DNA of 58,691 bases from Chloroflexota bacterium (GCA_016210485.1 JACQUD010000061.1:1-58691), one strand, 5' to 3'. Positions 1,726 to 16,249 are shown, numbered from the stretch's first letter. Program-made: numbers and translations. Notes: generated by a model from the sequence alone, not told the origin.

Positions 1726-2727
1726 TTATCTGACCTTGGCAACGGGCTCGGTCTCAACCGGCGTGTCGGTCCGGTTGTTCCATTCCGCCATCGAGCCGTC
1801 GTAGTTGGTCACCTTGTCGAAGCCCATGAGTCTCAAGGTGAAATAACCGTGAGCCGCCCGCACCCCGGTCTGGCAATAGACGGCGACAGTATCATTCTGT
1901 GTCAGCCCTTTGCCGACGAACATGGCGGCCAGCTCTCCGGCAGGTTTCCAGACTCCAGCGTCCCCAGGTGTCATGGTATCCTCCCAGTTAACGTTCACGG
2001 CGCCCGGGACATGCCCACCCTTCATGTTGCCCCGAAGATCCTGGCCGACGTATTCGGCCAGGCTGCGGGTGTCCATCACCGTGAAGCCTGGTTTGCCGAG
2101 GTTCCCCAGGAGCGCGTCTCCGGTGATGAGAAGACGGCCCTCGGGGCGGGCGGTGAACTGCGCCGGCGTGACTTCGGGGACCGCCTGGGTGATGGGCCTG
2201 TTTTCTTGCTGCCACTTGGGGAAACCGCCATTCAGAATGGCGACCTTATCCCTGAGGCCGAAGTATTCCAGAGTCCAGAAGACTCGCGCCGCAACCATGC
2301 CCCGGTTCTCGTCATACAGCACCACCTTGACCGTATCGTCACCGATGCCCAACTCAGCGAGGGCCGTCTCTATTTGCGAGACCGGCGGCAGCTCGTTGGG
2401 GAAAGGTTGGTTGACGGAGATCCGGGAGAGTGGCAGGTTGAGGGCGTCCGGCAAATGTCCGGCAGCATATCTGTCGGGGGACCTGACGTCCAGGAGCCGC
2501 ATTCCAGGGGCGTCCAGGTTCGCCTGGAGCCATGAGGTCTCCACCAGGAGATGGGCGTTGGGGTAGGCCGAGACAGGCGCGGGTGTTGCCGTCGGAGTCG
2601 GAGTGGCCTCCCGGGCGCAAGCTGTTAGAACTAGCAGGGCTGCCAGGAGCCACAAGACTATCCACTGGCGCTGCAACCTAATACGGGACACAGGGGCCCT
2701 TTCATCCTTGGAGACATCTTCTAACAT
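1726..2727 (-). CDS. Exported (lipoprotein-type signal) tandem-rhodanese sulfurtransferase (thiosulfate/3-mercaptopyruvate sulfurtransferase family)
   Basis: 333-aa ORF. It has the signal 'LLAALLVLTAC', two rhodanese-like repeats and the C-terminal catalytic loop 'VYCQTGVRAAH'. Confidence 0.85.
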   Translation of the reverse strand: MLEDVSKDERAPVSRIRLQRQWIVLWLLAALLVLTACAREATPTPTATPAPVSAYPNAHLLVETSWLQANLDAPGMRLLDVRSPDRYAAGHLPDALNLPLSRISVNQPFPNELPPVSQIETALAELGIGDDTVKVVLYDENRGMVAARVFWTLEYFGLRDKVAILNGGFPKWQQENRPITQAVPEVTPAQFTARPEGRLLITGDALLGNLGKPGFTVMDTRSLAEYVGQDLRGNMKGGHVPGAVNVNWEDTMTPGDAGVWKPAGELAAMFVGKGLTQNDTVAVYCQTGVRAAHGYFTLRLMGFDKVTNYDGSMAEWNNRTDTPVETEPVAKVR

Positions 2728-2739: not shown

Positions 2740-4755
2740 CTACTTCTCGGATACGACGATGGTGCCCATCATCTCAGGATGAAGCGGACATGTCATGGTG
2801 AAGGTACCGGTATCGGGTGGCACAAAGGAAATAGCCAGCCAGCCACCTGCCCTGGCATGCAGGTGCACATCTATTCCGGTGGGGCATATCCCCGATTCGG
2901 AGTCACACACGTGGTAAGGTAGAAACAAAGCAGAGCGGAGGCTGTTGATGTCCGATGGCATGGGTCCCGTATCTTGTGATGAGAGCCAGAGAATGTCCTG
3001 GGCCGGCATCTGACGGGCATGGAAGTGATGCTCCACACTTCCGGTGTTCTCAAAGACCAGGACCACCCGCTGCCCCTTGACCAGCGACAGGCTGGCTGGC
3101 TCGAAGCCAGAATCGCTGCCCTTGACCTGAATGACGCGAGCATCGGCCAGGGAGACCCGCGTCAGTGTTTGCGAGGGGGTAGACGGAGATATGGGCAGGT
3201 GCCATACCAGAGGCGCTATAACTGCTTCAACGCAGTCATCGTCGGAAGCTACGGACAGCGTCAACACCTGATGTCCCCCTTTTATGAGAGGCGAGCCGCT
3301 CCCATCCTTCGATGGAAACAGGTAGTGCGTTGTGCGGTGATGACCATCGGAGAGCAGTGGCCTCACCCTGACAGGGGCAAACGGGCCTCTGCCGTCCACG
3401 GTAAGAACAAGGTTGAGCGCATCTTCAGGAAGGTCCGAGGCGTGAATCGACTGGGTCACCGTGAAAGAGATGCCGATGCCTCCTGACTCGATCTCTGGAG
3501 ACATGCGCCCGGTTAACTCAAACAGGAGGGGGGCCTCGTATATAGCCTCCAGGTCGCTGTCGCCCGGCCCCTGGCCAGCGCGGGTTAGCAGAGGTATCAA
3601 CTCCCTGACCATGGCAGCGGTCCTGAGGCTTCTTTGGACATCGTCCTCGGTGACTCCAGCTTTCGCTGTGGGAGGAGGCTCCTGTGTCGCGGGCCCCTCG
3701 GAAAAGACGGTCATCTTCCCCCGGATTTGGGGGTGAAGGGGGTCTTGCACGGCGAACGTTCCACTCCCAGCGGCAGAAAAGGACATGGCATCCAGCCCGC
3801 CCCCTTCGGCATAAAGATGGACCTCGTCAGCTCTGGGACAAACGCCGGCGGCCGAGGTGCACATGGTCAACAGAGCAAGGTCGGAATCTACAAAACTGGC
3901 GCTATGATCGTGCTCGTCGCTGCCCTCGGCGCCTAGTGTGTCATGATTCCCCCTGGACAGCCACCTGGGGTCTATCGGTGTCAACCCTATGACTTGATAG
4001 TGACGTTCGTCAGCGGTTTGATTTCGCAGTACTAGACTTATGGTCCATCCTGCAGGGATGAGGACCAACGCTGGCTGGATGCCGCCCTCTGTCATGTCCA
4101 CGTTTATGGTCATGTACCCGGCAGGGGCAAGGGACAGCGTGAGGTCACTCGTTTCAACGGGGACGACTGCGGTGGGCTCGCTTCCAGGCGCAGCGGCCTC
4201 ATCTTGACCAAACGTGCCAGCGCCGCCGGAGCGAGCAACCTGGAGCAGCCCCAGCAGCACTAAAGTGGCGACTACGCTCACCGATGTCATCCCAGCTAGC
4301 CTCAGGCGATGGGCCACGGCCTTTTTGGACACCTGCCTCCAGAACAGCAACACGCTCAGCGCCGCCACGATGCCCAACTCTAACGTCTTGGAGGCCACAT
4401 CTAGGATGCCCAAACCTTCCACGTGGCCAGCGTGCGCACCAAACAGGGGTATGCCCACGGTGCGGGTCACCACGTAGAAGCCAGCCATCCACAGATTGAG
4501 GGAGATGCCGGTGATCAAGTACCAGGGCGCTGCAAAGAGCCGCCTCCTGGGCGCCACGAGCCCCACTGCGTAGAGGCTCTGGAGCCCCGCTACCAAGAGG
4601 AAGAACCACCCATAGCCCCACCACTCTCTGAAATGCTCCGGGGCAAACGCCAGATGGATAGCAGAGGCGCCAAGGGAGAACAGGGCCGCCGAAGCTCTAA
4701 GGGTGAGCTGTTTCGTGACCCTGTAACGTATCTGGCCAACCCTCATCTTCTCCAC
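2740..4755 (-). CDS. Membrane-anchored protein with two paralogous cupredoxin-like domains, one with an intact Cys-His-Met pattern and one degenerate
   Basis: 671 aa, with about 5 N-terminal hydrophobic helices. The C-terminal domain ends 'FTMTCPLHPEMMGTIVV' (Cys-x2-His-x2-Met). Its internal paralog has 'FAVQDPLHPQIRGKMTVF', with Asp in place of Cys. Both carry a C-x6-C pair ('MCTSAAGVCP', 'VCDSESGICP') and His-rich strands ('EHHFHA', 'DVHLHA'). Confidence 0.7.
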   Translation of the reverse strand: MEKMRVGQIRYRVTKQLTLRASAALFSLGASAIHLAFAPEHFREWWGYGWFFLLVAGLQSLYAVGLVAPRRRLFAAPWYLITGISLNLWMAGFYVVTRTVGIPLFGAHAGHVEGLGILDVASKTLELGIVAALSVLLFWRQVSKKAVAHRLRLAGMTSVSVVATLVLLGLLQVARSGGAGTFGQDEAAAPGSEPTAVVPVETSDLTLSLAPAGYMTINVDMTEGGIQPALVLIPAGWTISLVLRNQTADERHYQVIGLTPIDPRWLSRGNHDTLGAEGSDEHDHSASFVDSDLALLTMCTSAAGVCPRADEVHLYAEGGGLDAMSFSAAGSGTFAVQDPLHPQIRGKMTVFSEGPATQEPPPTAKAGVTEDDVQRSLRTAAMVRELIPLLTRAGQGPGDSDLEAIYEAPLLFELTGRMSPEIESGGIGISFTVTQSIHASDLPEDALNLVLTVDGRGPFAPVRVRPLLSDGHHRTTHYLFPSKDGSGSPLIKGGHQVLTLSVASDDDCVEAVIAPLVWHLPISPSTPSQTLTRVSLADARVIQVKGSDSGFEPASLSLVKGQRVVLVFENTGSVEHHFHARQMPAQDILWLSSQDTGPMPSDINSLRSALFLPYHVCDSESGICPTGIDVHLHARAGGWLAISFVPPDTGTFTMTCPLHPEMMGTIVVSEK

Positions 4756-4895: not shown

Positions 4896-6464
4896 TTATT
4901 TCTTCGCGGCTGCGAGCTCCGCGACCTTGGCCCTTACGATGGCCCAGATGGATTCTGACTTGGGACCGCCCTGGTCGAGCAGCACCTCGCCAGTCCAGTC
5001 CGCGTTGTACCGAACGAATCCACCCGAGTGGGTATCCCCGCCATTGGGAGTCGGGATATAGGCCTTGGTCTTGTTCGTGTTCAGGTCCAGGACTATGGTC
5101 TCCCAGCCGTTCTGGTCGCTTATCCAGAGCTCGTTCACCGCCGGGTCCGGGTGTAGGATACCATGGTCTATGCTGGAGGCCGACCCACCCAGGGTGATCG
5201 GCAGTTGGGTAAACGTGCGGTCCTGCCTGAACAGGTTCGTGTCGATGACGCCCACCACGCCACCCTTGTTGTGGCTGCCCTCGCCCTTGCCAATGACGTA
5301 AAGGCGTGTCTCATCCCAGTTCAGGGCCAGCCCATAAGGCCCTGCCACCCCAGCACTGGTGCGAGCGACGACAGTGTTTGTGGTGTTGTCAATCTTGACA
5401 GTCTGGCTGGTCTCGGCATCGTTAACGTAGGTGAACTTGCCGTCCGCAGTGTGGGTGATGCCGATGGGGTGGTGTCCCACGTTCGGGATGACCGTCACCG
5501 CGCCGGTCTCCAGATTGAGCTTGGCTATCCCTGCCGCTGGAAACTCGGAACGCGTGATCTCTGGTGAATCCATGGAGATGTAGAGGAACTTGCCGTCGGG
5601 ACTGGGCGTCGTGAACGGATGGCCCATGGGCTTCACGTCGTCATACGTTATCGCCTTCACAACTCTGTTGTCATCCTTGGGGTCGAGTATGACGTGAGGG
5701 CCGCCGTCGGATCCGAAGCCGAACGTCAGGACCACCCGGTCCTGTCCCTTGGAATCTTTGAACGACTGGATGTGATGGAGATACTGCCTGCGCATCTTCC
5801 CCTGATAGTAGCTCTCCTGCTTGAGGAGCTTGTCTATCTTCAAGGTCCTCATATTGACGATGGCCACCACGGACTCGTCTTTGCCGGCAGCGTCCTTCTG
5901 TCCCCAGCCCACGTACGCCCACTTCCCATCCGGCGAGACCATGACGCCATGAGGATAGCGTATGATCTCCTGTCCCACGTTGAAAAGGGCCGACTTCACG
6001 ACTTCCTTGGTGTTGGCGTCTATGAGGTGGAAGCCGGCGAAGAACGGCGCGCTCTTGTCGTACTTGGGGCTAATGGACAGAGTGCCCTCGCTGCTAATGT
6101 ATATCAGGGGGTGGTCCTTGGCGCTCCAGGCATCGGGCCCGCTGGAGTCGTAAGTAGCCACCAGCTTTAACCCCGCTCGGATGGACTCCGCCGTGTCCCA
6201 TCCCGTGGGCTGGGCCGCCGCTGGGACAGGCTGGAGTTGGCCGGCCTGGACCATGGTAACAGGCGCCAGCCCCTTTATTTCCGCTTGAAGCTGCGAGACC
6301 TCGGACTCCTTCTCGACCACCTTGGCTTCAGCTACGGCCGCCCTGGCCTTGGCATCGTCCAGGTCTTTTTGAGACACGCCTCCACCGCAGGCCACAAGCA
6401 GCCCGACCAGCGCCACTAGGCCAGCGAGGAGGAGAAAGCGTTTTCTCGCTCGTGTTGACGGCAT
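4896..6464 (-). CDS. Lipoprotein with a charged coiled-coil-like linker and a His-rich beta-propeller (YVTN/cd1-like repeats)
   Basis: 522 aa with lipobox 'GLLVACGG'. Blade-like repeats include 'VMVSPDGKWAYVGWG', 'TTPSPDGKFLYISMD', 'GITHTADGKFTYVNDAETSQTVKIDNTTNTVV' and 'LALNWDETRLYVIGKG'. There are many conserved-looking His residues ('YLHHIQ', 'VGHHPIG', 'GDTHSGG'). Confidence 0.7.
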   Translation of the reverse strand: MPSTRARKRFLLLAGLVALVGLLVACGGGVSQKDLDDAKARAAVAEAKVVEKESEVSQLQAEIKGLAPVTMVQAGQLQPVPAAAQPTGWDTAESIRAGLKLVATYDSSGPDAWSAKDHPLIYISSEGTLSISPKYDKSAPFFAGFHLIDANTKEVVKSALFNVGQEIIRYPHGVMVSPDGKWAYVGWGQKDAAGKDESVVAIVNMRTLKIDKLLKQESYYQGKMRRQYLHHIQSFKDSKGQDRVVLTFGFGSDGGPHVILDPKDDNRVVKAITYDDVKPMGHPFTTPSPDGKFLYISMDSPEITRSEFPAAGIAKLNLETGAVTVIPNVGHHPIGITHTADGKFTYVNDAETSQTVKIDNTTNTVVARTSAGVAGPYGLALNWDETRLYVIGKGEGSHNKGGVVGVIDTNLFRQDRTFTQLPITLGGSASSIDHGILHPDPAVNELWISDQNGWETIVLDLNTNKTKAYIPTPNGGDTHSGGFVRYNADWTGEVLLDQGGPKSESIWAIVRAKVAELAAAKK

Positions 6465-6518: not shown

Positions 6519-6947
6519 GACCAACGTTCTCTCGTTACATTCCACCTCCCGCCGGTTGCCGGCAGCACCCCAGGGCCAGGGATTCTCCTGCCTAGCGTCG
6601 CCCATATGTGAGACTCATCACGATATACACCGACCATACTCTATGGCAGTCCTGCCGCCAATTGAACACCACAAATGGTAGTCCCGCAGCCAGAAGAGGG
6701 TAGGGTGGCGCTGTGTCCGCCTACCAGAACGGGTGGGCGGAGCTTTGGGAATAGCGAGTAGTGCTGGCACCGCGGAGTCAGCGGGCCACCCGAAGGCAAA
6801 AGGCGTTTGCTGGTGCCCACCCTCTGGGGCCGATAGGCGCTGGAGCACGACTACGAATAATGGTAGGGCATCGCGCCCCGAATCCCACCTCTTATGGTGG
6901 TGATTATCGCCCATCTCATGCCATATACTCGTGCCCAAAGGAGTCAA

Positions 6948-7499
6948 ATGAAGTTACTGCGTGTGCGCTACCTGATACTCGGCCTCGCTGGCGTTTCCGT
7001 CCTTCTGGCAGCGTGCTCGTCCGGCGCGGGAGAAAAAGAACAGCCGCAAGCGACGGCCACGCCTACCCCGACGGCGGTCCGGGCTGTCGCGCCCACGGCA
7101 ACGGCGACCGCCGCGAGGACCCCCACCGCCCCGCCGCTGGCTGCCACTCCTACTCCGACGGCGACGGCAGGCAAGACTCCAACCTCTGTTGTACAGACGC
7201 CGTCATCGTCGGCATCGGGACAGGAGATCCAGGTGCTCATGAGAAACAACGTGTTTCCCGAAGAGATCCACGTGAAAGCGGGGACAAAAGTTGTCTTCGT
7301 GGTCATCAACGAGTCTGATAACGATGAGCACAGCTTCGAGTTTCCAGATTTCGGGCTCACCTATAAGGTGCAAGCCGGTGAGACCATAAGGATCGAGTGG
7401 CAGGCCCCCAACAGCAAGGGTGTGTGGGACGCGGGGTGCTTTCTTACCCAGCCTGGCGGGGTGCACGACGGGATGGAAGGTCTCTTGATCATCGAGTAG
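6948..7499 (+). CDS. Cupredoxin (type-1 copper) lipoprotein with a Thr/Pro/Ala-rich linker
   Basis: ORF track gives 6894..7499. I trimmed it to the ATG at 6948, which is preceded by AAGGAG and gives 'MKLLRVRYLILGLAGVSVLLAAC'. The C-terminus 'EHSFEF...GCFLTQPGGVHDGMEG' fits the His/Cys/His/Met ligand pattern. Confidence 0.75.
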   Translation: MKLLRVRYLILGLAGVSVLLAACSSGAGEKEQPQATATPTPTAVRAVAPTATATAARTPTAPPLAATPTPTATAGKTPTSVVQTPSSSASGQEIQVLMRNNVFPEEIHVKAGTKVVFVVINESDNDEHSFEFPDFGLTYKVQAGETIRIEWQAPNSKGVWDAGCFLTQPGGVHDGMEGLLIIE

Positions 7500-7518: not shown

Positions 7519-7911
7519 GTGAAGAGCATGAGATCTGTCGTTGGACTGCTGTCGCTTGCAGGACTTCTAGCGTTGGCTGCGTGCGGTTCCGGTGGGGGCG
7601 AGGCCAAGAACCCGCCGCCCCAGGCCCAGGGGATGGCGCAGGAGGTCAAGGTAGATATGGGCGACTATTTCTATGAGCCAAGCCAGCTCACCATCAAGGC
7701 GGGGCAGGTGCATTTCGTCCTGACCAACGTGGGCAAGACGGCCCACCGCTTCGCCATTACCGGAAATGGCGTGAAAGTGAGCAGTCGGAACGTGGGCGCC
7801 GGACGGGAAGGGACCCTGGATGTGGAACTGGCCCCGGGCACATACAAGATGGGGTGCACCCTTGGCGACCACGAGGCGCGGGGCTCGGTTGGACAGATCG
7901 TTGTCCAGTAG
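7519..7911 (+). CDS. Small cupredoxin (plastocyanin/azurin-like) lipoprotein with Ser at the expected axial-Met position
   Basis: 130 aa with lipobox 'LLALAAC'. It contains 'KTAHRFAI' and 'YKMGCTLGDHEARGSVGQIVV' (Cys-x4-His, then Ser where related proteins have Met). An AGGAGGG lies upstream of the GTG start. Confidence 0.8.
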   Translation: MKSMRSVVGLLSLAGLLALAACGSGGGEAKNPPPQAQGMAQEVKVDMGDYFYEPSQLTIKAGQVHFVLTNVGKTAHRFAITGNGVKVSSRNVGAGREGTLDVELAPGTYKMGCTLGDHEARGSVGQIVVQ

Positions 7912-8404
7912 CCGGGTCCCGGCCGCCCCGGCCCGCAGTCAACCCTATAAAGGGCGAGGAACAGGCAAAGCGCAGGCGCCCGGGTCCGGCGACGGATGGG
8001 GGGTCCAGGACATCCGCTGGCCAGCTATCTGGGCAGGGTACGCAGTCGCAACGCTGGTCACTCTGGCCGCCGGATTGCCCTTGCTGGCAGCCAAAGACAG
8101 CACCTGGCTCCTGGCCGCCTCAGGCTCGGCGGGCCTGCTGGCAGGCGGACTGGTTACAGGAAAGCGAGCAGGTCGGCAATTGGCCCTTCTCAACGGGGCT
8201 CTCCTTTGCGTGATGTACAACGTAAGCGTGGCAGGGGCGTTCTTCATCGGGTCCATACTCCAACTGCTTCCTGAACCGCTGCCTGGGCTCCCCCAGGGGG
8301 ACTCCACGTTCTTCTTCGCTTGGCCGCTGGCCCAGTTCGTGTTGGCGGTCGCGGGCGCCGCCGTAGGCAGCCGTATGTCAGTGAAGCGGAAGACGGGAGG
8401 GTAG
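7889..8404 (+). CDS. Small 4-TM membrane protein of unknown function
   Basis: The ORF is open from 7820 (ATG inside the upstream gene). In-frame TTG codons at 7889 and 7901 are more plausible starts, so the start is uncertain. Four hydrophobic segments are present ('WAGYAVATLVTLAAGLPLLAA' ... 'WPLAQFVLAVAGAAVG'). Confidence 0.5.
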   Translation: MDRSLSSSRVPAAPARSQPYKGRGTGKAQAPGSGDGWGVQDIRWPAIWAGYAVATLVTLAAGLPLLAAKDSTWLLAASGSAGLLAGGLVTGKRAGRQLALLNGALLCVMYNVSVAGAFFIGSILQLLPEPLPGLPQGDSTFFFAWPLAQFVLAVAGAAVGSRMSVKRKTGG

Positions 8405-8408: not shown

Positions 8409-9809
8409 GTGCCCCCAGATGTTCCCCTGATAAACGACCGCCTGGTATTGTGGGTGGTGGCAGAGCTTCATCTGCTGTTTGCGGCCTTCGTCCTGGGGGC
8501 GCCCATCTTCATCGTTATCTGTGAATATCTGGGCCTCAAGACCAGGGATGAACGATACGAGAGGCTGGCCAAGGAGACAATGAAGATTGTGGCCATCGCC
8601 TACAGTCTCACAGCCTTGTTTGGTGGCGCTATGACCTTCGTGCTGGTGGGGAAGTACCAGGAGTTCTCTAACTTCATCTTTCAGCGTTTCTATCCGATCT
8701 TCGGCCTCTATGCTTTGCTGTTGCTCGCGGAGTCCGGCCTTATGTATGTCTACTGGTACACCTGGGACGCCCTGGCAGGGCGAAAGCGCTGGCACATCAG
8801 CATCGGCGTTCTCCTCAATGTCCTGGGTACGCTGGTCATGTTCTTGATGAATGGGGTGGGCAGCTTCATGCTGACGCCTCCCGACTCTCCGGCGACGGCT
8901 ACTGTCTGGCAGTCGCTCAACAACGCCACCTGGACCGGACTGAACCTGCACCGGTTCGTGGCCAACATTTCGTTCGGCGGGTTCATGGTGGCGCTGTTCG
9001 CCGCCCTCATGTTCCTCACCAGCAAGAAAGAAGACGACAGGGCGTTCTACGATTGGATGGGCTACATCGGAAATTTCATCGGCGTAGCGGCCCTGGTAGT
9101 CCTGCCAGTGGCAGGGTATATCTACACCAAGGAGATATTCGCCTATGACGCCACCATAAGCACGCTTCTGATGGCGGACAAGCTGGCCTGGTTCTTCGTG
9201 ATGCAAGGTATCCTGGTGGGCTTCCTGTTCCTCGGAGCAGTGTACTACATGTGGTTGAGCATCCAGCGCATCGAAGGGGGCGCCCGCTTCCGCACCTATA
9301 TCCGCGGCGCCATCTGGGCCTGCCTGGTGGGACTCGCCGTCTGGCTGGTACCGCAGAGCTTCCTGCCATCCCTTACCGCCGAGCCAAGCGGCCCCATATC
9401 GGAGGTGACCATCCCCGAAAAGACGATCTTCCTGGGACTGATGCCGGCCAAGGGTCTGGCGGTGAGCGCAATAGTGGTGGTGACCGCCTTTGTGTATTTT
9501 CTGTATCGGCAGGCCATCGCTACCGGCAAGATGGCGTGGGGGCGCATAGATGTCAAGGCGCAACTTGTCCTTACGTTCCTGCCGGCCGTAGCGGTCTTCA
9601 CTATGGCCTTCATGGGCCCCATCCGTGAGATGGCCAGAGGCCAGTGGCACATCTTCCAGTTCATGCCCGACAAGACTCCTTACTCCTTCATCACGCCGCT
9701 AGGGTACACAGCTATCGTGGCCGGGGCCATAACCATTATTTTCTTTCTGCTGATGGGCGCCATCTTCTGGTTGGGCTTCAAGGTCGGCCACCAGAAGGAA
9801 ACTACGTAG
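8409..9809 (+). CDS. Cytochrome bd oxidase subunit I (CydA)-like polytopic membrane protein, with no CydB partner nearby
   Basis: 466 aa with about 12-14 hydrophobic segments. The N-terminus 'LVLWVVAELHLLFAAFVLGAPIF' resembles CydA helix 1 with its heme-ligand His. The GTG start follows GGGAGGG. This family call is made from memory of CydA sequences and has not been checked with an HMM. Confidence 0.65.
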   Translation: MPPDVPLINDRLVLWVVAELHLLFAAFVLGAPIFIVICEYLGLKTRDERYERLAKETMKIVAIAYSLTALFGGAMTFVLVGKYQEFSNFIFQRFYPIFGLYALLLLAESGLMYVYWYTWDALAGRKRWHISIGVLLNVLGTLVMFLMNGVGSFMLTPPDSPATATVWQSLNNATWTGLNLHRFVANISFGGFMVALFAALMFLTSKKEDDRAFYDWMGYIGNFIGVAALVVLPVAGYIYTKEIFAYDATISTLLMADKLAWFFVMQGILVGFLFLGAVYYMWLSIQRIEGGARFRTYIRGAIWACLVGLAVWLVPQSFLPSLTAEPSGPISEVTIPEKTIFLGLMPAKGLAVSAIVVVTAFVYFLYRQAIATGKMAWGRIDVKAQLVLTFLPAVAVFTMAFMGPIREMARGQWHIFQFMPDKTPYSFITPLGYTAIVAGAITIIFFLLMGAIFWLGFKVGHQKETT

Positions 9810-9822
9810 AGGAGACAGCGGG

Positions 9823-10413
9823 TTGCGTATTATCCTAATAGTAGTTGCGGTTATCGCGGCCATTTGGGTCGCTCCCGTTCTTATCTCTGAGGACTCAGGG
9901 CTTAAGTTCGGTGTCTCCTACCGGGTGCTGTTCACCCTGTTCGTCTTGTTTGCCGGCTTCCTGTTCTATCTGCTACGCGCTCCAGAGTGGAAGCCATTCA
10001 AATCGACGCCAAGGGCGGTGGGAAGCGTGGGGTTGGTCTTCGTCGCTGTCATCGGAGCTATCGTCCTCCTGGCCAACGTGTCTCCCCAGTTTGCCTCTGA
10101 GGGCCAGGCGTCCACGGGAGCATCCTCTGGGGAAAGGGGAAAGGCGGCGTTCTTCGACCCCGGCGTGGGCTGTTTTCTGTGCCACACGGTGGCGACTTCT
10201 GGTGGAACCAGGGGCCCCGATCTCACCCATGTGGCCACAGTGGCAGCCAACCGGCGGCCGGGCCTATCCGTCGAGGACTATTTGAAGGAATCTCTCTTCA
10301 GCCCCGGCGCCTACGTGGTGGCTACGTTCGATAACATCATGCCGCCCTTTGGCGATAGGCTGTCCCCCGAGCAACTCAAGGATATCCTGGCGTACCTGAT
10401 GTCATTGAGATAG
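9823..10413 (+). CDS. Membrane-anchored monoheme c-type cytochrome
   Basis: 196 aa with three N-terminal hydrophobic helices. It has a single 'CFLCH' heme-binding motif and a downstream 'NIMPPFG' (Met-Pro typical of class I cytochrome c sixth ligand). Confidence 0.8.
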   Translation: MRIILIVVAVIAAIWVAPVLISEDSGLKFGVSYRVLFTLFVLFAGFLFYLLRAPEWKPFKSTPRAVGSVGLVFVAVIGAIVLLANVSPQFASEGQASTGASSGERGKAAFFDPGVGCFLCHTVATSGGTRGPDLTHVATVAANRRPGLSVEDYLKESLFSPGAYVVATFDNIMPPFGDRLSPEQLKDILAYLMSLR

Positions 10414-10434: not shown

Positions 10435-11622
10435 ATGTACCGACGCATCCTGGTCCCGGTGGACAATTCCCCTTACTCCGATTTTTCGGTGAGGCTGGCC
10501 GTGGACCTCGGCCGGAAGTTGGGGGCGCACCTAGTGGGCTGCCATGTATATGCCGCCCGCTTGCATGACGACCGGTTCCGGCAGATGGAAACGGGCTTGC
10601 CAGGCCGGTACCAGGAGAAGGACGAGCTCCGGCGGCAACGACAGGTGCACGACTCCCTCATCACCAAAGGGCTGCAGCTCATCTCTGATTCTTACCTCGA
10701 CCCCTTTGAGGCAAGGTGCCGGCAGGCCGGCGTCCCCTGCCAGCGCCGCGTGGTGGAGGGGACTAATTACGTAGAGCTGGCAAAGGAGGTCGAAAACAGC
10801 GGCTGCGACCTCGTCACGATGGGCATCCGGGGCCTGGGGGCGGTGGAAGAAAGCGTCATCGGCAGCGTGTGCGAACGCGTGGTGAGGAGGATCCGGTGCG
10901 CTGTGCTAGTAGCGAAGAACGACTCGCCCCTGGGCGGAAACATCGTGGCGGCCGTGGATGGTAGCTCGCGCTCCCTATCAGGCCTGAGGGCGGCCATAGC
11001 TCTGGGGAAGGTTTTTGGCGCTTCGGTAGAGGTGGTGGCCGTCTTCGACCCGTACTTTCACGGCATGGCATTCCGCAGCCTGGCCGGCGTCCTCTCGGAG
11101 GAGGCGGGTAAGGTATTCCGGTTCCGCGAGCAGGAGCGCCTCCACGACGAGATCATTCACGATGGGCTGCGCAAGTTGTACGAGTCTCACCTGGAGACGG
11201 CCGTGACGTTCGCCCGGTCGCAGGGCCTGGTGGTCACGTCCGCTCTTCTTCCGGGGAAGCCATTCCAGAAGGTGCTCCACTATATTCGGGAGCGGCGGGC
11301 CTCTCTTCTGGTGGTAGGACGGTTCGGTGCTCACTGCACAGGCACTACTGATATAGGTAGCACCGCAGAGAACCTGTTGCGGCTGGCTCCTTGCCACGTG
11401 CTCATCGCAAACGGGGACGAGCAGCCGGCTGTCGCCGACCTGCTTGTGAAGGAGGCTTCTCCCATACCTTGGACCGGGGAAGCTGAGGCGAAGTTGCAAC
11501 ACGTGCCTCCCTTCGCCCGAGGCATGGCCCGCAACGCCATAGACGACTACGCGAGACGCCATGGGCACGCCGAGGTGACGCCGGAAGTGATGGACAAAGC
11601 CCGAGGGGAAATGGGGATGTGA
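10435..11622 (+). CDS. Tandem universal stress protein (USP) domains fused to a C-terminal PCP_red-like (BchB C-terminal) domain
   Basis: 395 aa. 'MYRRILVPVDNSPYS...' and 'NIVAAVDGSSRS...' are the two USP cores. The tail 'IPWTGEAEAKLQHVPPFARGMARNAIDDYARRHGHAEVTPEVMDKAR' matches the W-T-x-E-A-E-x-x-L-x-x-(I/V)-P-F-F-V-R pattern of the ChlB/BchB C-terminus. Confidence 0.8.
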   Translation: MYRRILVPVDNSPYSDFSVRLAVDLGRKLGAHLVGCHVYAARLHDDRFRQMETGLPGRYQEKDELRRQRQVHDSLITKGLQLISDSYLDPFEARCRQAGVPCQRRVVEGTNYVELAKEVENSGCDLVTMGIRGLGAVEESVIGSVCERVVRRIRCAVLVAKNDSPLGGNIVAAVDGSSRSLSGLRAAIALGKVFGASVEVVAVFDPYFHGMAFRSLAGVLSEEAGKVFRFREQERLHDEIIHDGLRKLYESHLETAVTFARSQGLVVTSALLPGKPFQKVLHYIRERRASLLVVGRFGAHCTGTTDIGSTAENLLRLAPCHVLIANGDEQPAVADLLVKEASPIPWTGEAEAKLQHVPPFARGMARNAIDDYARRHGHAEVTPEVMDKARGEMGM

Positions 11623-11705
11623 CGTCGGTCCTGGTCCTGGCAGCGGGCTCGGCCAAGGGACTTTGGACAGGCGCGGCAACGGAATATGTGGAGGAGGGCA
11701 GACCT

Positions 11706-12602
11706 ATGGCAAGGAAGCACAGAGGCATTGCGGCTGATGGCGGCTCTGATATCGTGGCCCAGGTAGTCGCTCAGGGCGACCGCCTGGGGTCGCGGATGGC
11801 GCTCGTTCGGCACAAGATCGCGGTCATGAGCGGGAAGGGAGGGGTGGGCAAGAGCTCCATAACCGCCAACCTGGCGGCAGTCCTGGCCTCCCAGGGATAC
11901 CAGGTGGGAATTCTGGACGCCGATATCAACGGCCCTGCTATAGCCAAGATGCTGGGCGTGCGTGCGCAAAACCTGTCCCTAAGCGAGAACGCCATCCTAC
12001 CGGCCCTCGGGCCCCGCAGCATCAAAGTCATGTCCATGGACCTGCTCTTGCCCGGGGACAAGACGCCGGTGATCTGGGAAGCTCCCACCCAACAGAACTC
12101 GTTCGTCTGGCGAGGGACGATAGAGGCGAGCGCCTTGAGGGAGTTCCTGGCCGACACCGCTTGGGGCGAGTTAGACTTCCTGCTGGTAGACCTACCACCT
12201 GGAACGTACACTTTTCCGACCCTGGAGCAACTGGTGCCTGACCTTGTGGGCATCATTGTTACCATTCCGTCCGAAGTTTCACATCTGGTGGTCAAGCGAT
12301 TCATCAGCCTGGCTCAGGAGTTGGGGACTCTGCTGGCGGGTCTGGTGGAGAACATGGCCGGCTATACTTGCCCGCACTGTGGCAAGGTGGGCGAGCTTTT
12401 CTCTGCCGCAGGCGATGGCGAGAGAATGGTGGCGGAGATGGGCATATCTTACCTGGGCAGCATACCCTTCGACGCCAGGCTTTCGGCATCCGCTGACTGG
12501 GGCATCCCTTTTGCCCTGGAGCATGGCGGGTCTCCTGCGGGACAGGCCCTGGCCCATGTGGCAGCCAAAGTCAAGGAGTTCGTTGGAGAGTCCCGAAGAT
12601 GA
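11706..12602 (+). CDS. Mrp/NBP35 (ApbC) family P-loop ATPase / Fe-S cluster carrier
   Basis: It contains 'KIAVMSGKGGVGKSS' (deviant Walker A) and 'YTCPHCG' (the CxxC of the family). The ATG at 11706 is preceded by GGAGGAGGG. A longer form from the GTG at 11619, overlapping the upstream stop as GTGA, is also possible. Confidence 0.85.
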   Translation: MARKHRGIAADGGSDIVAQVVAQGDRLGSRMALVRHKIAVMSGKGGVGKSSITANLAAVLASQGYQVGILDADINGPAIAKMLGVRAQNLSLSENAILPALGPRSIKVMSMDLLLPGDKTPVIWEAPTQQNSFVWRGTIEASALREFLADTAWGELDFLLVDLPPGTYTFPTLEQLVPDLVGIIVTIPSEVSHLVVKRFISLAQELGTLLAGLVENMAGYTCPHCGKVGELFSAAGDGERMVAEMGISYLGSIPFDARLSASADWGIPFALEHGGSPAGQALAHVAAKVKEFVGESRR

Positions 12603-13039
12603 AGCTTTCTTGCGGCAATTGCGCACAGGCGATGCAACTCGTGAAAGCGACAGATCTGGCCGATGGATCGATGTCCATCATCTTCGGTTGTGCTTCCTGC
12701 GGGAATCGCGTCTCCCTTTTGACCAATCCAGGAGAGACTCAACTGGTCAGAGCCCTCGATGTCCAGATCGGTGGCCGGACTGTGCCCCCAGAACCGATGG
12801 GACTAGTGAGGAGCGCTCTTGCTCGACAGCGTGACGACGCCTTTGTCTCGCAGTCGGACGTTCCCCAGCCCAAGGAAGGGGTTATCTGGACCGAGGACGC
12901 TTTGAGGCGGCTGGAGAATGTGCCCGCTTTCGTTAGGGATATGGCGCGGAAGTCCATCGAGAGATACGCTATGGAAAAGGGCTGTCATCAGATCACCCCT
13001 GAGGTGATGGACCTGGCCAGGAAGGCGACCGGCGGATGA
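12599..13039 (+). CDS. Small zinc-ribbon protein with a C-terminal PCP_red-like domain
   Basis: 146 aa. The motifs 'CGNC...CASCGN' form a 4-Cys ribbon. The tail is 'VIWTEDALRRLENVPAFVRDMARKSIERYAMEKGCHQITPEVMDLAR'. It has ATGA overlaps with both neighbouring genes. Confidence 0.75.
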   Translation: MKLSCGNCAQAMQLVKATDLADGSMSIIFGCASCGNRVSLLTNPGETQLVRALDVQIGGRTVPPEPMGLVRSALARQRDDAFVSQSDVPQPKEGVIWTEDALRRLENVPAFVRDMARKSIERYAMEKGCHQITPEVMDLARKATGG

Positions 13040-14316
13040 GAGATTCCTCGTTGGGGAAGAGCGGGTCGGTTGAGCGCGGACCAGACTCACCGTCGTACCA
13101 TGGATTGCCCGAAGTCCCCACGCGTCCCGAGATCGTCTCCTGGAACGTTACCAGGCGATGCAATCTATCGTGTCCCCATTGCTACCTGAACGCCGGTCTG
13201 CCAGCGGAGCGGGAACTGACAACCCAGGAGGGCCTGCGATTAGTAGACGAGATGGCTGCCATCGGCACCAGGATGCTCATCCTCAGCGGGGGCGAGCCTC
13301 TGTTGAGAAGCGACCTCTTCCAGATCGCGGCGCGAGCCTCCGGGGTGGGGATGTCCGTGGTTCTGGGGAGCAACGGGACCCTGCTCTCTCTGGAGGTAGC
13401 TCGGCATCTCTCGGCCGCCGGGGTGAAGGGGGTTGGGATCAGCCTTGATTCATTAACTCCCGAACGGCATGATGCCTTCCGTGGGGTTGCCGGGGCCTGG
13501 AAGGCAGCGCTGAAAGGATTGGACTCTTGCCGCCAGGCGGGTCTGCCAGTGCTCATTCAAATGTCCTTGTTTGACTGGAATTACAGCGAGATTGACGACA
13601 TGGTCCGTTTCGCGCACGATCGCGGTGCTGCGGGTTTCAATCTCTATTTCCTGGTTTGCTCGGGCAGAGGGGAAGCTCTTACCGACATCGGTCCCGACCA
13701 GTACGAAGAAGCGTTGGAGACCGTGGTGAAAGCCCAGGCTCGAAACCCTCAGATCATGGTGAGAGTCCGCTGCGCTCCCTATGTGACCAGAGTGGCACAT
13801 CAACTAGGTCATCCCTCGTCTGCCGGTTTCGGATGCATGGCTGGGATCAGCTACGGTCGGATAACCCCGGAGGGCGATCTGACTCCCTGCCCTTACTTGC
13901 CTCTATCTGTTGGCAACGTCGGGCAGCAGCCGCTCGCCCATCTGTGGTGGGATTCCAGTCTGCTGGGAGACTTGAGATTGGGTGGACTGAGGGGCCGTTG
14001 TGGCCACTGCCAGTATGGCGACTCTTGCCGAGGATGTCGGGCCAGGGCCTGGTCCGACACCGGTGACTTGCTCCAGGAAGATCCCTGGTGTCGCTACGAT
14101 GGACAAACTGCCCCATCGCCGTTGCTCGGAGGAGTGGTCTGGAGCAGTGAGGCTGAGGAGCGACTGAAGCGGGTGCCCTTTTTCCTGAGGAATGGGATCA
14201 GAGCAGCGGTAGCGGCCTACGCCAAGAGACAGGGGCAGGCCACCATAACTGTCGGCCTGATGGAGGAGGTACGCGCCAAGATGCGGCCAGGAGGCCCCAC
14301 TCAGACAGTTCAGTAG
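13036..14316 (+). CDS. Radical SAM/SPASM enzyme of NirJ/AhbC/AhbD-like type with a C-terminal PCP_red-like domain
   Basis: 426 aa. 'VSWNVTRRCNLSCPHCY' is the CX3CX2C motif, and 'CGHCQYGDSCRGCRARA' is the SPASM/twitch Cys cluster with a NirJ-family-like 'GCRARA'. The tail is 'VVWSSEAEERLKRVPFFLRNGIRAAVAAYAKRQGQATITVGLMEEVR'. Confidence 0.8.
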   Translation: MRDSSLGKSGSVERGPDSPSYHGLPEVPTRPEIVSWNVTRRCNLSCPHCYLNAGLPAERELTTQEGLRLVDEMAAIGTRMLILSGGEPLLRSDLFQIAARASGVGMSVVLGSNGTLLSLEVARHLSAAGVKGVGISLDSLTPERHDAFRGVAGAWKAALKGLDSCRQAGLPVLIQMSLFDWNYSEIDDMVRFAHDRGAAGFNLYFLVCSGRGEALTDIGPDQYEEALETVVKAQARNPQIMVRVRCAPYVTRVAHQLGHPSSAGFGCMAGISYGRITPEGDLTPCPYLPLSVGNVGQQPLAHLWWDSSLLGDLRLGGLRGRCGHCQYGDSCRGCRARAWSDTGDLLQEDPWCRYDGQTAPSPLLGGVVWSSEAEERLKRVPFFLRNGIRAAVAAYAKRQGQATITVGLMEEVRAKMRPGGPTQTVQ

Positions 14317-14622
14317 GCGAAGCTTTTTGCCCGGCTTGGCGCTGCGTTGTCGAACGCGAGCATCCCGGTGAAGCTCTAGGGGCGGTGAAGGAGCAGGCTG
14401 TTCGCTTCAACACCCTGCACAGGGAGTGCGGGAACAGCATCCAGATGCCCAAGTGGTGTGCCCAGTGCGAGTTGCGGCGAGTAGAAGGAGGTGAACATAG
14501 GGCTGGCGATATCAGACAGACAGCGAGTGGCTTCACCCCAAGTCGCTACCTCAGACGTAACGGCGATGAGGCTGCCACTCACCAATGCCGCCCCAGACTG
14601 CTAGCTGGAGGCTGAGTTCAAA

Positions 14623-14662
14623 GGTAGCGCGGGTTCTGTCTATTGTTACCGATGCTCCACCA
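14623..14662 (+). repeat. Copy 1 of a 40-nt repeat ending in GCTCCACCA
   Basis: ggtagcgcgggttctgtctattgttaccgatgctccacca. It is 29/40 identical and of equal length to the copy at 15466-15505 (hand alignment). Confidence 0.6.
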
Positions 14663-14681
14663 GGGAAGGACTCGAACCTTC
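14657..14681 (-). pseudogene. tRNA 3'-end fragment (T-arm plus acceptor 3' strand) with no matching 5' half
   Basis: The minus strand reads GAAGG-TTCGAGT-CCTTC-CCTGGTG-G. I found no complementary CACCAGG within 120 nt upstream. Confidence 0.45.
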
Positions 14682-14730
14682 ATGACGGCGACTAAATACT
14701 GAGATTGAAGGTCAGGTCAAAGTCCTTGAG

Positions 14731-14758
14731 AGTTCTACTTATTGATACCCTAGCTCCA
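14731..14758 (+). repeat. 28-nt partial copy of the 40-nt repeat
   Basis: agttctacttattgataccctagctcca is 26/28 identical to 15475-15502. It is followed by a degenerate restart, 'agttctaccttta'. Confidence 0.6.
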
Positions 14759-14890
14759 GTTCTACCTTTATTCCACCGTTGATTTCCAAAATTGTCCACA
14801 AAAATGTTTGCTAAGTTGCAAATGAGCAACCCAACCCAAGGCAATATTGTTTATTAATTTTTGCGAATGACTGAGCCAAAAGGAAGCAAT

Positions 14891-14917
14891 TTGACCGTGA
14901 AACCAGCACCGTATAAT
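14891..14917 (+). promoter_or_regulatory. Sigma70-like promoter of the islet gene
   Basis: TTGACC (14891-14896), a 15-nt spacer and TATAAT (14912-14917), about 40 nt upstream of the ATG at 14959. The spacer is short. Confidence 0.35.
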
Positions 14918-14958
14918 ATTTGTAGCATGTCAATAAATCACACGACGAGGAGAATGGT

Positions 14959-15399
14959 ATGAAGAAGAGATTTGTCTTGTCTGCGCTGGCCAGCGCCGTG
15001 ACGGTGCTCATTCTCAATGGAGTCATCTACGCTCTGTTTTATGGTGACTTCTTGAAAAACAATTCCGGACTGTCTGTAGAATTGTTTGAAAAGGTGCAAA
15101 GACCTGTAGACCAAACCAATATTCCTGCCACCATTCTTTCGATGCTCGTTATCGGATGCCTTATTACTACCGTTGTCCATTGGGTAAAAGCAAAAACGTT
15201 TATCAATGGTTTAAAGTTCGGGTTCATTTTCGCTGTCCTCATGGTTGGCTCTGTAAATCTCGGGCTGCTCGCCACCACCTATTATTACTCAACTAAATCA
15301 GGCATCATCGATATTTTCGTGGGGGCGGCGACAATTGCAATCGGCGGCGGGGTTGCCGCCTTGATAATGGGTGGGGGCACAAAGCCTGCAAAGGCCTGA
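14959..15399 (+). CDS. Small 4-TM membrane protein (possibly DUF1761-like) encoded in low-GC DNA
   Basis: 146 aa with a GAGGAG RBS. Hydrophobic segments include 'LSALASAVTVLILNGVIYALFYG', 'ILSMLVIGCLITTVV', 'FIFAVLMVGSVNLGLL' and 'FVGAATIAIGGGVAALIMG'. Confidence 0.7.
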   Translation: MKKRFVLSALASAVTVLILNGVIYALFYGDFLKNNSGLSVELFEKVQRPVDQTNIPATILSMLVIGCLITTVVHWVKAKTFINGLKFGFIFAVLMVGSVNLGLLATTYYYSTKSGIIDIFVGAATIAIGGGVAALIMGGGTKPAKA

Positions 15400-15465
15400 A
15401 CATAACCGGAACATTACCCCACCGTAACGGAGACGAACCAGTGGTCAAGAGACGATAGTAAACGT

Positions 15466-15505
15466 GGTAGAAAAAGTTCTACCTATTGATACCCTGGCTC
15501 CACCA
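15466..15505 (+). repeat. Copy 2 of the 40-nt repeat ending in GCTCCACCA
   Basis: ggtagaaaaagttctacctattgataccctggctccacca. It starts with a 7-bp hairpin, GGTAGAA/TTCTACC. Confidence 0.6.
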
Positions 15506-15586
15506 CTCGCAACGCGAATGCTGTCTGGTCAGGTATTATGCGGAGAGGTCTAGGGCGAGCTCAAAAGTTCTTGCTTCTGTACGGTA

Positions 15587-15611
15587 TGGTGGGCCAGACG
15601 GGATTCGAACC
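15587..15611 (-). pseudogene. tRNA 3'-end fragment with encoded CCA
   Basis: The minus strand reads GGTTCGAATCCCGTCTGGCCCACCA. The upstream sequence (GAAGG) does not pair with the CCCGT T-stem strand, and no GGGCCAG 5' acceptor strand is present. Confidence 0.5.
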
Positions 15612-15739
15612 TTCGGTTACCCCATGGTTATACAATAGTCCTTATCAATAGGGGCCGGGCACCCTCAAGGTTTCCAAATACCTGCAAGCCGCGCAATGTC
15701 GGGATCCAATAAGAGATCGTTGCCGAGTTTACATAGTGA

Positions 15740-15919
15740 CTAGCGGAGTAGCCGGGGAAGGACGAATAGCGAGGAGATGACTAAAATCCCGCCCAGGGCC
15801 ATGAGGGCTAGGCCCAGGAGAGGCTGGCGGCTCTCGGCAGCGCCCACCCAGACCCTCCACCCGGCTAGGCCCGCCGCTATCCCCAGGGGGAACAAGGCCC
15901 CGATTAACCACCTCTTCAT
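15740..15919 (-). CDS. Unlisted 59-aa two-TM mini-protein
   Basis: It is below the ORF-track length cut-off. The reverse complement gives MKRWLIGALFPLGIAAGLAGWRVWVGAAESRQPLLGLALMALGGILVISSLFVLPRLLR*. A GAGGAGG lies about 12 nt upstream, and an extended -10 (TGCTATAAT, 15950-15955) sits further upstream. Confidence 0.5.
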   Translation of the reverse strand: MKRWLIGALFPLGIAAGLAGWRVWVGAAESRQPLLGLALMALGGILVISSLFVLPRLLR

Positions 15920-16128
15920 GAGTGGAACTTGCCTCCTCGCTTTTGCCCCATTATAGCACGGGCGAGTGACGCTATGTATAGTTACTACGGCTGCGGTAAG
16001 GTTCGACGAGCTTAGTCGAGCCGCTCAGGATGAGGCATCAGAGTTAGTCAGGATTTCTCACTCCTGGTGATCCTGTATAGACAGGTGATGAGATAGAAAA
16101 ACGTTACTAAAATCCTGCCTAAGTGGTC

Positions 16129-16248: not shown

Positions 16249-16249
16249 C

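Follow-up and report, generated by a model that had tools for sequence, protein, structure and literature searches.

A divergent CydA-like protein encoded with a membrane-anchored cytochrome c, cupredoxins and putative heme-supply genes in a Chloroflexota bacterium

We analysed a DNA stretch of 58,691 nt from a groundwater Chloroflexota bacterium (GCA_016210485.1 JACQUD010000061.1:1-58691; hereafter, the window), which contains a gene for a 466-aa CydA-like membrane protein. The open reading frame (ORF) of this protein opens with a GTG start codon, encodes AELHLLFAAFVLGAPIF at residues 18-34, and belongs to a nine-gene operon that runs from the cupredoxin gene cup1 to a radical SAM gene with intergenic gaps of -11 to +21 nt (Table 1). 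On its 5′ side, the ORF of a protein with four transmembrane helices (4-TM protein) ends at position 8404, 4 nt before the CydA-like start. On its 3′ side, after 13 nt, a TTG start codon opens the ORF of a cytochrome c with three N-terminal transmembrane segments and a single CFLCH heme c site (residues 117-121). An earlier reading of the sequence alone (the original prediction) had described this CydA-like gene between a 4-TM gene and a cytochrome c gene, and all of these features were recovered. Promoter and terminator scans gave background-level signals.

The Pfam profile PF01654 matched the CydA-like protein with E = 2e-18 and 66.6 bits (cut-off 26.2), over residues 11-246 only, which correspond to positions 3-240 of the 418 in the profile. 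The sole sequence match in the PDB was Geobacillus CydA (E = 4e-6, residues 6-158), and identity to E. coli CydA was 21%. An AlphaFold2 model built from 50 homologues, with a predicted local distance difference test score (pLDDT) of 84.9 and a predicted template modelling score (pTM) of 0.85, was characterized by 11 transmembrane helices. When compared with the PDB by Foldseek, its ten best matches were all CydA chains, with template modelling scores (TM-scores) of 0.46-0.59 and E-values down to 1e-7; the highest TM-scores (up to 0.59) were obtained with CydA of E. coli bd-I and bd-II, and CydB chains scored lower. Judging from its sequence and predicted fold, the protein is a true, very divergent member of the bd superfamily with a CydA fold, which bears out the identity that had been assigned to it.

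Residues were mapped onto E. coli CydA by means of a profile alignment and a MAFFT multiple alignment, on which the C-terminal half depends; when the family profile was compared with the single E. coli sequences in hhalign, CydA was aligned over residues 11-128 only, with a probability of 27%, and CydB not at all. On this map, the His ligand of the active-site heme (H19 in E. coli) corresponds to H21, and the axial ligands of the low-spin heme b558 (H186 and M393) correspond to H181 and M345, the Met being assigned from one MAFFT alignment. M255, a candidate for the M393 equivalent on the basis of topology, was dropped, as the alignment favours M345. The cytoplasmic proton-channel residues E107 and H126 are represented by E108 and H129, while N148, R448 and W451 are represented by N148, R410 and W413. 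At the E99 position we found Y101, beside a one-residue deletion typical of non-qOR1 families, and the E445 position falls on Phe401 by interpolation (A400/F401 between M399, equivalent to V443, and M402, equivalent to Y446). Glu never occurred at the latter position across the alignment and no conserved Glu lies nearby, E407 varying between Glu and Ser.

The mapped residues were invariant in 119 homologues (54-92% identity), and H21, Y101, E108, H129, H181, M345 and R410 were kept, with rare exceptions, down to 36% identity. Other invariant residues were Y214-D215-W216-M217, M255, K348, M399, M402 and R406. Because this map is conserved, the low-spin heme site, the active-site His and part of the proton path are retained. 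Of the ligands that the original prediction had listed for scoring, the equivalents of His19, His186 and Met393 are thus present, and that of Glu99 is an invariant Tyr.

A check for the Q-loop had also been proposed. In the AlphaFold2 model and in the alignment, no Q-loop with the quinol-binding residues K252 and E257 was present; at its place, between the equivalents of H186 and M393, residues 257-313 form a hairpin of two transmembrane helices, with only short connections. This hairpin fits the description by Luecker et al. (2013) of bd-like oxidases, which carry membrane helices instead of a Q-loop. On the evidence of alignment and model, the protein has lost the quinol site together with two acidic di-heme site residues. 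Moreover, the 466-aa protein has no CxxCH motif, its only Cys residues being C38 and C305.

The partners of a canonical CydA were then looked for. Neither PF02322 (CydB) nor a CydDC-type ABC transporter was detected in Pfam scans of 53 substantial ORFs in the 58-kb window, and a hydropathy screen of every ORF of at least 60 aa in the window revealed no unexplained polytopic protein; the absence of cydB and cydDC from these 58 kb, as previously noted, was therefore upheld. A tblastn search of the window with E. coli CydA, CydB and CydX returned nothing; it missed the CydA-like gene too, which indicates that BLAST is too insensitive at such a distance, and CydX, without a tblastn match in the window, is at ~37 aa too short to be excluded by homology. 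In ~80 related loci, cydB never recurred as a partner.

Murali et al. (2021; doi 10.1101/2021.01.16.426971) distinguish the qOR, OR-C and OR-N families within the superfamily: OR-C proteins have heme c motifs inside CydA, OR-N proteins have no quinol site and other donors in the operon, and H19 is conserved in all cydA clades. According to their Table S6, OR-N2 is characterized by Tyr at E99, Glu at E107, His at H126 and Tyr-x-Tyr at F114/F116, and OR-N1 by Gly at the E107 position, with E99 and E445 lost in OR-N1/N2. The signature of the window protein is the OR-N2 signature of that table and, as it has no CxxCH, the protein is not OR-C. Its features and neighbours, rather than the authors' own hidden Markov model test, support its membership of OR-N ("bd-like"). 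In two respects the protein departs from OR-N1/N2: it has 11 helices rather than 14, and its operon matches no published type, with one CydA-like gene, one monoheme cytochrome c gene, and no EB_dh, Rieske or cytochrome b gene in the island.

In a neighbour-joining tree rooted on E. coli CydA, the window protein lay far from the root sequence, together with Nitrospirota/Nitrospinota proteins of OR-N1 (Tyr/Gly) and OR-N2 (Tyr/Glu) signature. The original prediction had mentioned bd-like clades associated with c-type cytochromes that remain biochemically uncharacterised. Such clades are indeed described by Murali et al. (2021); the placement away from canonical CydA held, and the family turned out to be OR-N, not the heme c-containing OR-C.

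A species-level scan (one genome per species) yielded at least 170 relatives, which fell into three clades, A and B being sisters in the tree and together sister to C. Clade A, which includes the window protein (at least 50% identity, 461-521 aa), was found in Chloroflexota, Gaiellaceae, Bipolaricaulia, Fraserbacteria, Acidobacteria, Betaproteobacteria, Sulfuricaulis and a Thermaerobacter metagenome-assembled genome (MAG). Clade B (43-49% identity, ~476 aa) occurred in Methylomirabilia, Caldilineales and Nitrospirota, and the tree grouped with it a Nitrospira copy (~41% identity) in which position 108 is Gly, as in OR-N1. Clade C (36-41% identity, ~540-615 aa, with N-terminal extensions) was OR-N2-like and was found in Nitrospirota, Nitrospinota, large sulfur bacteria and other Proteobacteria. 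When 1.84 billion representatives were searched with a profile, 164 clusters (50% identity) were obtained at E <= 1e-30 and 685 at E <= 1e-10.

Some variation was observed among these relatives. In two Nitrospirota MAGs of clade B (L055 and L076), His21 was replaced by Met, with the other conserved residues unchanged. Proteins of a Dehalococcoidia/SAR202 subclade (L004, L026, L032, L034, L041, L047; P0046-P0119 class) were 517-521 aa long, with an insertion of ~52 residues after residue 45, in the helix 1-2 loop, which is predicted to be cytoplasmic. Public records (P0002, P0008, P0011, P0097 and others) name the homologues "cytochrome ubiquinol oxidase subunit I"; because the quinol-binding loop and CydB are absent, this label is likely a systematic mis-annotation.

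To describe the partners of the CydA-like gene, we combined gene tables of five distant loci, pairwise comparisons, an 87-locus partner search and an unbiased clustering of neighbourhood ORFs. Gene order was conserved in ~40 loci from at least eight phyla, and the observed gene set is far beyond chance. The cytochrome c gene was located 3′ of the CydA-like gene in 64 of the 82 loci, in clades A, B and C, and the pairing was kept down to 36% identity. Natural fusions were also found: one protein of 889 aa (P0244) combines a CydA-like domain with two cytochrome c domains homologous to that of the window, another (P0286) has one such domain, and three CydA-like proteins (P0256, P0259, P0289) carry a C-terminal CxxCH. 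Conserved pairing and natural fusions support a functional tie between the CydA-like protein and a membrane c-type cytochrome, the association at the heart of the original prediction.

The heme domain of this cytochrome is homologous (E = 9e-18) to Kustd1711, a diheme cytochrome c of the Kuenenia stuttgartiensis nxr cluster that is His/Met ligated and has a potential of ~+350 mV (PDB 7zs0; PMC11791136). The CxxCH motif and the distal Met are aligned, M173 with the distal ligand M116, and C117, C120, H121 and M173 were invariant in 48 orthologues. In contrast to the soluble Kustd1711, with its pair of heme domains, its "nose" domain and Ca2+ sites that raise the potential, the window protein combines a single heme domain with a membrane anchor of three helices. 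The genomic setting is similar as well, as the Kuenenia nxr cluster encodes blue-copper proteins (PMC11791136) and, according to Luecker et al. (2013), a bd-like protein. Since cytochrome c, blue-copper and bd-like proteins are encoded together there, a bd-like protein, a Kustd1711-type cytochrome c and cupredoxins appear from these homologies to form an old, reused unit. In clade B loci (L048-L056), genes for a molybdopterin oxidoreductase (~890-940 aa), a 4Fe-4S subunit and a NarJ-like chaperone were located 5′ of the bd-like/cytochrome c pair. An "NXR-type" label for this molybdoenzyme was dropped, as NCBIfam gave only an unassigned similarity to the DMSO-reductase family; the best matches were Fdh-alpha and PhsA-like, both below their cut-offs.

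Among clade A loci, the genes for the cupredoxin, the 4-TM protein, the Usp-PCP_red protein (a fusion of universal stress protein and PCP_red domains), the small PCP_red protein and the radical SAM protein were almost always present where the contig reaches. The cupredoxin gene cup2 was located directly 5′ of the CydA-like gene, apart from the 4-TM gene which intervenes in the window's subclade. In cup2, H76, C113 and H118 were invariant in 40 orthologues, and the axial Met, present in many of these, is Ser in the window. In cup1, which shows weak similarity to the C-terminal domain of NosZ (E = 5e-8), H146, C182, H191 and M194 were invariant in six orthologues. The suggestion that a cupredoxin might serve as donor thus gained a conserved operon partner.

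Orthologues of the 4-TM protein (40-60% identity) were found in all close loci where the contig reaches; their genes precede the CydA-like gene in the subclade of the window and follow the cytochrome c gene elsewhere. The listed start of the ORF in the window (7820) overlaps the preceding cupredoxin gene; homology among orthologues begins at about residue 58 of the listed ORF, consistent with a product of ~130-167 aa. No Pfam or NCBIfam family matched the protein. Its invariant residues (P94, P96, P98, G99, L100, D104, S105, T106 and F107) lie within LPEPLPGLPQGDSTFFF, in a loop that is predicted to be periplasmic according to the positive-inside rule, and the lack of any conserved His, Cys or Met indicates a cofactor-less protein. 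On the basis of this conservation, we consider that it is a conserved subunit.

Table 1. Coordinates of the redox operon and of the divergent genes beside it in the window
Feature	Coordinates	Strand	Evidence and remarks
Sensor histidine kinase, membrane, N-terminal ~539 aa (GAF-GAF-HisKA_3)	2..1618	-	Gene runs off window start
Two-domain rhodanese-like sulfurtransferase, accessory	1726..2727	-	Pfam Rhodanese E = 6e-38
671-aa membrane protein with cupredoxin-like domains, accessory	2740..4755	-	Pfam Cupredoxin_1 E = 8e-14; ~4 TM
522-aa lipoprotein, His-rich ~8-blade beta-propeller, accessory (Chloroflexota subclade only)	4896..6464	-	Lipobox LLVAC; model pLDDT 88.3
cup1, 201-aa lipoprotein cupredoxin, gene 1 of the nine-gene operon	6894..7499	+	Pfam Cupredoxin_1 E = 8e-9
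cup2, 130-aa type-1-like cupredoxin	7519..7911	+	Pfam Cupredoxin_1 E = 1.6e-11, Copper-bind E = 3e-5
4-TM accessory subunit, start uncertain	7901..8404	+	ORF opens at 7820; TTG at 7901 is the last in-frame candidate
Putative CydA-like catalytic subunit, OR-N type, compact 11-TM, 466 aa	8409..9809	+	PF01654 E = 2e-18
Monoheme His/Met cytochrome c, membrane-anchored (3 TM), 196 aa	9823..10413	+	Pfam Cytochrom_C E = 2e-8
Tandem universal stress protein domains + C-terminal PCP_red	10435..11622	+	Pfam Usp E = 1e-40 (2 stretches), PCP_red E = 1.4e-15
Mrp/ApbC/NBP35-type Fe-S cluster carrier ATPase	11619..12602	+	Pfam ParA (NUBPL) E = 2e-74
Small protein, N-terminal CxxC...CxxC + C-terminal PCP_red	12599..13039	+	Pfam PCP_red E = 1.6e-17
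Radical SAM/SPASM protein, AhbD/NirJ group, PCP_red fusion, last operon gene	13036..14316	+	Pfam Radical_SAM E = 1e-30, SPASM, PCP_red

Beyond what the original prediction had covered, the analysis brought out conserved downstream radical SAM, PCP_red and Mrp genes and an upstream sensor kinase. In almost every clade A locus, and in some of those of clades B and C, the downstream genes accompanied the CydA-like gene; the Usp-PCP_red gene was kept 3′ in clade A and in some distant loci, and the Mrp family, to which the ATPase belongs (NCBIfam MrpORP, 256 bits, below cut-off), was found in 17 loci. The radical SAM protein, with the CxxxCxxC motif CNLSCPHC, scored best against NirJ2 (TIGR04055, 342 bits) and AhbD (TIGR04545, 277 bits), both below the cut-off of 500. 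In L003 and L007, the gene following the radical SAM orthologue passed the TIGR00562 cut-off for CgoX/HemY (288 and 249 bits versus 98), and genes of this family were located beside the radical SAM orthologue in 10 loci. A PDB search matched the small PCP_red protein to BchB, a subunit of the protochlorophyllide reductase DPOR (E = 1e-5), over the C-terminal domain that PCP_red represents. In BchB, this domain helps to enclose the tetrapyrrole substrate. Three different proteins of one operon (10435..14316; loci L001-L047) end in PCP_red, and in the literature searched we found no description of PCP_red/PF08369 outside chlorophyll biosynthesis or of such a gene combination.

Genes for heme A and heme O synthases sit with those of heme-copper oxidases. 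A comparable arrangement would be the most economical reading here, namely that the operon carries its own O2-independent last step or steps of heme synthesis, as suggested by the family matches of its products. AhbD and NirJ2 are the best-scoring families, and the adjacent CgoX in 10 loci reproduces a known combination for O2-independent coproheme decarboxylation; the radical SAM protein of the window differs from AhbD/NirJ2 in its sub-cut-off scores, its additional C-terminal PCP_red, the two further PCP_red proteins and the Mrp ATPase, and any substrate or product assigned to it by homology is provisional. According to a 2026 review, AhbD occurs in anaerobic and facultative bacteria with the coproporphyrin pathway and without the other AHB enzymes, where it is the O2-independent coproheme decarboxylase. 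The sub-threshold scores, the unusual PCP_red fusions and the altered active site (Tyr for E99, no E445) led us to consider, as a speculative extension that we rate as rather unlikely, that the radical SAM-PCP_red protein, together with the two other PCP_red proteins, may make a modified heme, heme d-like or other, dedicated to this active site, much as heme A and heme O synthases serve heme-copper oxidases. If true, this would be a terminal reductase whose cofactor is new and for which a biosynthetic gene is known.

The sensor kinase at the start of the window was matched by GAF_2, GAF, GAF_3 and HisKA_3 in Pfam and was 39% and 36% identical to the kinases of L004 and L001, respectively (tblastn, E = 1e-109). 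Kinases of this GAF-GAF-HisKA_3 family were encoded near the CydA-like gene in 37 of the 82 loci, and the kinase probably switches the island on. The rhodanese gene, the gene for the 671-aa cupredoxin protein and the propeller gene are divergent from the operon, and these propeller-side accessory genes adjoined it in only six non-redundant clade A loci. The rhodanese scored 138 bits, below cut-off, against the NCBIfam 3-mercaptopyruvate sulfurtransferase model; a rhodanese was also found in L001 and L007.

Besides the propeller, the 522-aa lipoprotein has an extended N-terminal helix. Its family is large, tightly conserved and unnamed (579 matches), with invariant His residues (H118, H172, H230, H231, H282, H434, H438 and H479), two nearly invariant ones (H338 and H398), and many homologues of ~590 aa with a fused cytochrome c domain. 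Searches by sequence and by fold retrieved generic propellers only, with TM-scores of at most 0.46 (YVTN S-layer protein, cd1 NirS, NirF, NirN, hydrazine synthase beta), thiocyanate dehydrogenase being found at rank 29. An identity as NosZ was rejected: the scores for NosZ, L-NosZ and hydrazine synthase were ~20 bits versus cut-offs of 560-700 and corresponded to generic YVTN repeats, and there was no NosZ among the 50 fold matches listed. We regard the protein as a probable redox enzyme of the periplasm, uncharacterised so far, that depends on a metal or on heme. Orthologues of the 671-aa protein, which has a C-terminal CPLHPEMMG, adjoined the propeller in L001, L004, L010 and L013, and elsewhere the propeller has its own cytochrome c or cupredoxin-DsbD_TM neighbour (Acidobacteria locus L090, 10782..12578), which suggests a two-gene module of propeller and membrane cupredoxin. 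In this organism, the propeller and the extra cupredoxins may be a periplasmic redox partner rather than part of the core.

Past 14.3 kb, the window contains housekeeping genes (his, ilv/leu, rpsF-ssb-rpsR, ligA, uvrD). Directly 3′ of the redox operon, the region at ~14000..18000 has a G+C content of 53-54%, compared with ~60-63% elsewhere, and includes genes for a 146-aa protein with 4-5 transmembrane segments and no family match (14959..15399), a PhoU-like DUF47 protein and a PHO4 phosphate transporter. A 441-aa ORF (27314..28639, - strand) combines a complete His_biosynth domain of the HisA/HisF type (residues 2-227) with a SAM-dependent methyltransferase domain (~260-390), a second, separate His_biosynth gene being located nearby at 25495..26331. 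The sole other ORF of at least 100 aa with a CxxCH (55579..56358, - strand; near residue 23 in the stop-to-stop frame) encodes a DUF6062 family protein without transmembrane segments, which is probably not a cytochrome.

With regard to known systems, the window protein resembles the OR-N1/N2 proteins (for example, Nitrospira NIDE0901-like) in having no quinol site, no heme c in CydA and an adjacent c-type cytochrome, and it shares 36-41% full-length identity and the same invariant residues with OR-N1/N2-like proteins of Nitrospirota and Nitrospinota. Those proteins, however, have 14 transmembrane helices and ~540-615 aa, while the window protein, with 11 helices and 466 aa, is devoid of the N-terminal extension and insertions; the window is also devoid of a second CydA paralogue (CydAA′ of N1 and N2), of the several cytochromes c and the EbdC-like heme b subunit of N2 and of the petABD genes of N1. 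Conversely, the portions of the published OR-N1/N2 operon descriptions that were accessible make no mention of cupredoxin, monoheme cytochrome c, 4-TM or radical SAM/PCP_red/Mrp partners. With canonical CydAB(X) (E. coli bd-I and bd-II, Geobacillus; PDB 6rx4, 7ose, 5doq), the protein shares the subunit I fold and the equivalents of H19, H186, M393, E107, H126, N148 and R448. It differs from it in the missing Q-loop, CydB and CydDC (the latter two in the window), the Tyr at E99, the loss of E445, the two extra helices and a predicted donor that would be cytochrome c or cupredoxin, not quinol.

We propose that the 466-aa protein is the catalytic subunit of a reductase of O2, or of nitric oxide (NO), which would be fed by cytochrome c or cupredoxin rather than by quinol, and we give this reading a probability of roughly 0.5. 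OR-N proteins have been proposed in the literature as cytochrome c-dependent O2 reducers, and the analogy supports the suggestion, made in the original prediction, of a terminal oxidase or other reductase with such an electron input. Electrons would pass from a periplasmic donor to the cupredoxin and then to the His/Met cytochrome c, whose homologue Kustd1711 has a potential of ~+350 mV, and from there through the low-spin heme b (H181/M345) to the active-site heme on H21, where an acceptor of higher potential would be reduced, most likely O2, with NO as the main alternative. Protons would be taken up from the cytoplasm via the E108/H129 path, resulting in charge separation and a membrane potential, as in canonical bd. 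The 4-TM protein and the anchor of the cytochrome, with seven helices together, may occupy the place of the nine-helix CydB, and the four downstream genes (together with CgoX in other lineages) would most likely supply or finish heme without O2.

Several observations weigh against this proposal. Papers from 2024 and 2025 still report that experimental confirmation for OR-N is lacking, O2 reduction being assigned by analogy. With an invariant Tyr at E99, and Phe, never Glu, at the E445 position, the active site may hold a different set of cofactors. Many carriers are groundwater Dehalococcoidia, Bipolaricaulia and other lineages that are usually considered anaerobic, the heme enzyme of the operon is of an O2-independent type, and anammox bacteria have homologues yet do not respire O2. 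Finally, the locus was found in groundwater metagenome DNA runs only, with no RNA runs holding it among those found.

The same anaerobic and anammox hosts are what lends some weight to a different role, in which the complex would be a cytochrome c/cupredoxin:quinone oxidoreductase, similar to alternative complex III, that links the carriers to the quinone pool rather than to O2, either by uphill reverse electron flow or by passing quinol electrons downhill to a periplasmic reductase such as the propeller. This role was raised by Luecker et al. (2013) for the 14-TM bd-like proteins of Nitrospina and Kuenenia, and it would suit the clade B loci, in which the pair comes after the molybdopterin oxidoreductase, 4Fe-4S subunit and NarJ-like chaperone genes, as well as the redox propeller and extra cupredoxins that adjoin the operon in the window. 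We nevertheless consider it unlikely: the Q-loop is missing together with its quinol-binding residues, there is no evident quinone site in another place, a carrier at ~+350 mV needs an energy input to reduce quinone, the propeller is missing from most clade A loci, and the strict conservation of the active-site His and of the proton-channel residues fits the reduction of a substrate at the heme. An ordinary CydA subunit of a quinol oxidase, with its cydB elsewhere in the genome, is hardly credible. The public name "cytochrome ubiquinol oxidase subunit I" and the PF01654 match are in its favour, but that match covers the N-terminal half only, and a protein with 21% identity to E. coli CydA and no Q-loop, which clusters with OR-N1/N2-like proteins far from canonical CydA and whose partners in ~80 loci are cytochrome c, cupredoxin and 4-TM proteins and never cydB, does not correspond to such a subunit.

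The altered active site could also reflect different chemistry, with the same cupredoxin/cytochrome c input serving a detoxifying enzyme or a reductase of NO, of another N-oxide or of a reactive species. Organisms of the nitrogen cycle are over-represented among the carriers of the family (Nitrospirota, Nitrospinota, Methylomirabilia, anammox clusters and large nitrate-storing sulfur bacteria), the host lineages are largely anoxic or micro-oxic, and an interaction of canonical bd oxidases with NO is described in the literature. On the other hand, the island encodes no nitrite- or NO-forming enzyme, the protein has no similarity to known NO reductases, and aerobes, Nitrospira among them, have members of the family as well, which in Nitrospira are the proposed main oxidase; a dedicated function of this kind therefore seems doubtful. 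Lastly, the translational packing of the nine genes, the recurrence of the PCP_red/radical SAM genes with the CydA-like gene in different phyla, some clade B and C loci included, and the CgoX genes that adjoin in 10 loci could be understood if the complex were a non-respiratory electron outlet, oxidant or scaffold for anaerobic porphyrin or heme maturation. This is very improbable, given that most clade C and many clade B loci have the CydA-like/cytochrome c pair without these genes and that periplasmic high-potential carriers make little sense for a cytoplasmic pathway; an operon that joins an enzyme with the synthesis of its cofactor is simpler.

This kind of bd-like enzyme is known from genome surveys published between 2010 and 2021 and is still uncharacterised. 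What is new is the compact clade, with its 4-TM subunit, its fixed cupredoxin and its Kustd1711-type anchored cytochrome with fusions and, above all, the conserved radical SAM/PCP_red/Mrp (+ CgoX) module; for none of these was a description found in the literature searched. The probably wrong public label distorts metabolic reconstructions, in which groundwater and marine Chloroflexota are read as quinol-oxidising aerobes. OR-N proteins have been proposed as the main terminal oxidases in nitrite- and manganese-oxidising bacteria and in many uncultured ones, and the clade described here is the smallest version seen in this analysis, with a single CydA-like protein joined by a monoheme cytochrome c, a cupredoxin and a 4-TM protein, one of each. 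As a compact operon with cofactor-related genes, it is a practical target for expression, spectroscopy and cryo-electron microscopy, and its four subunits would offer the easiest route to a first biochemistry of the OR-N family.

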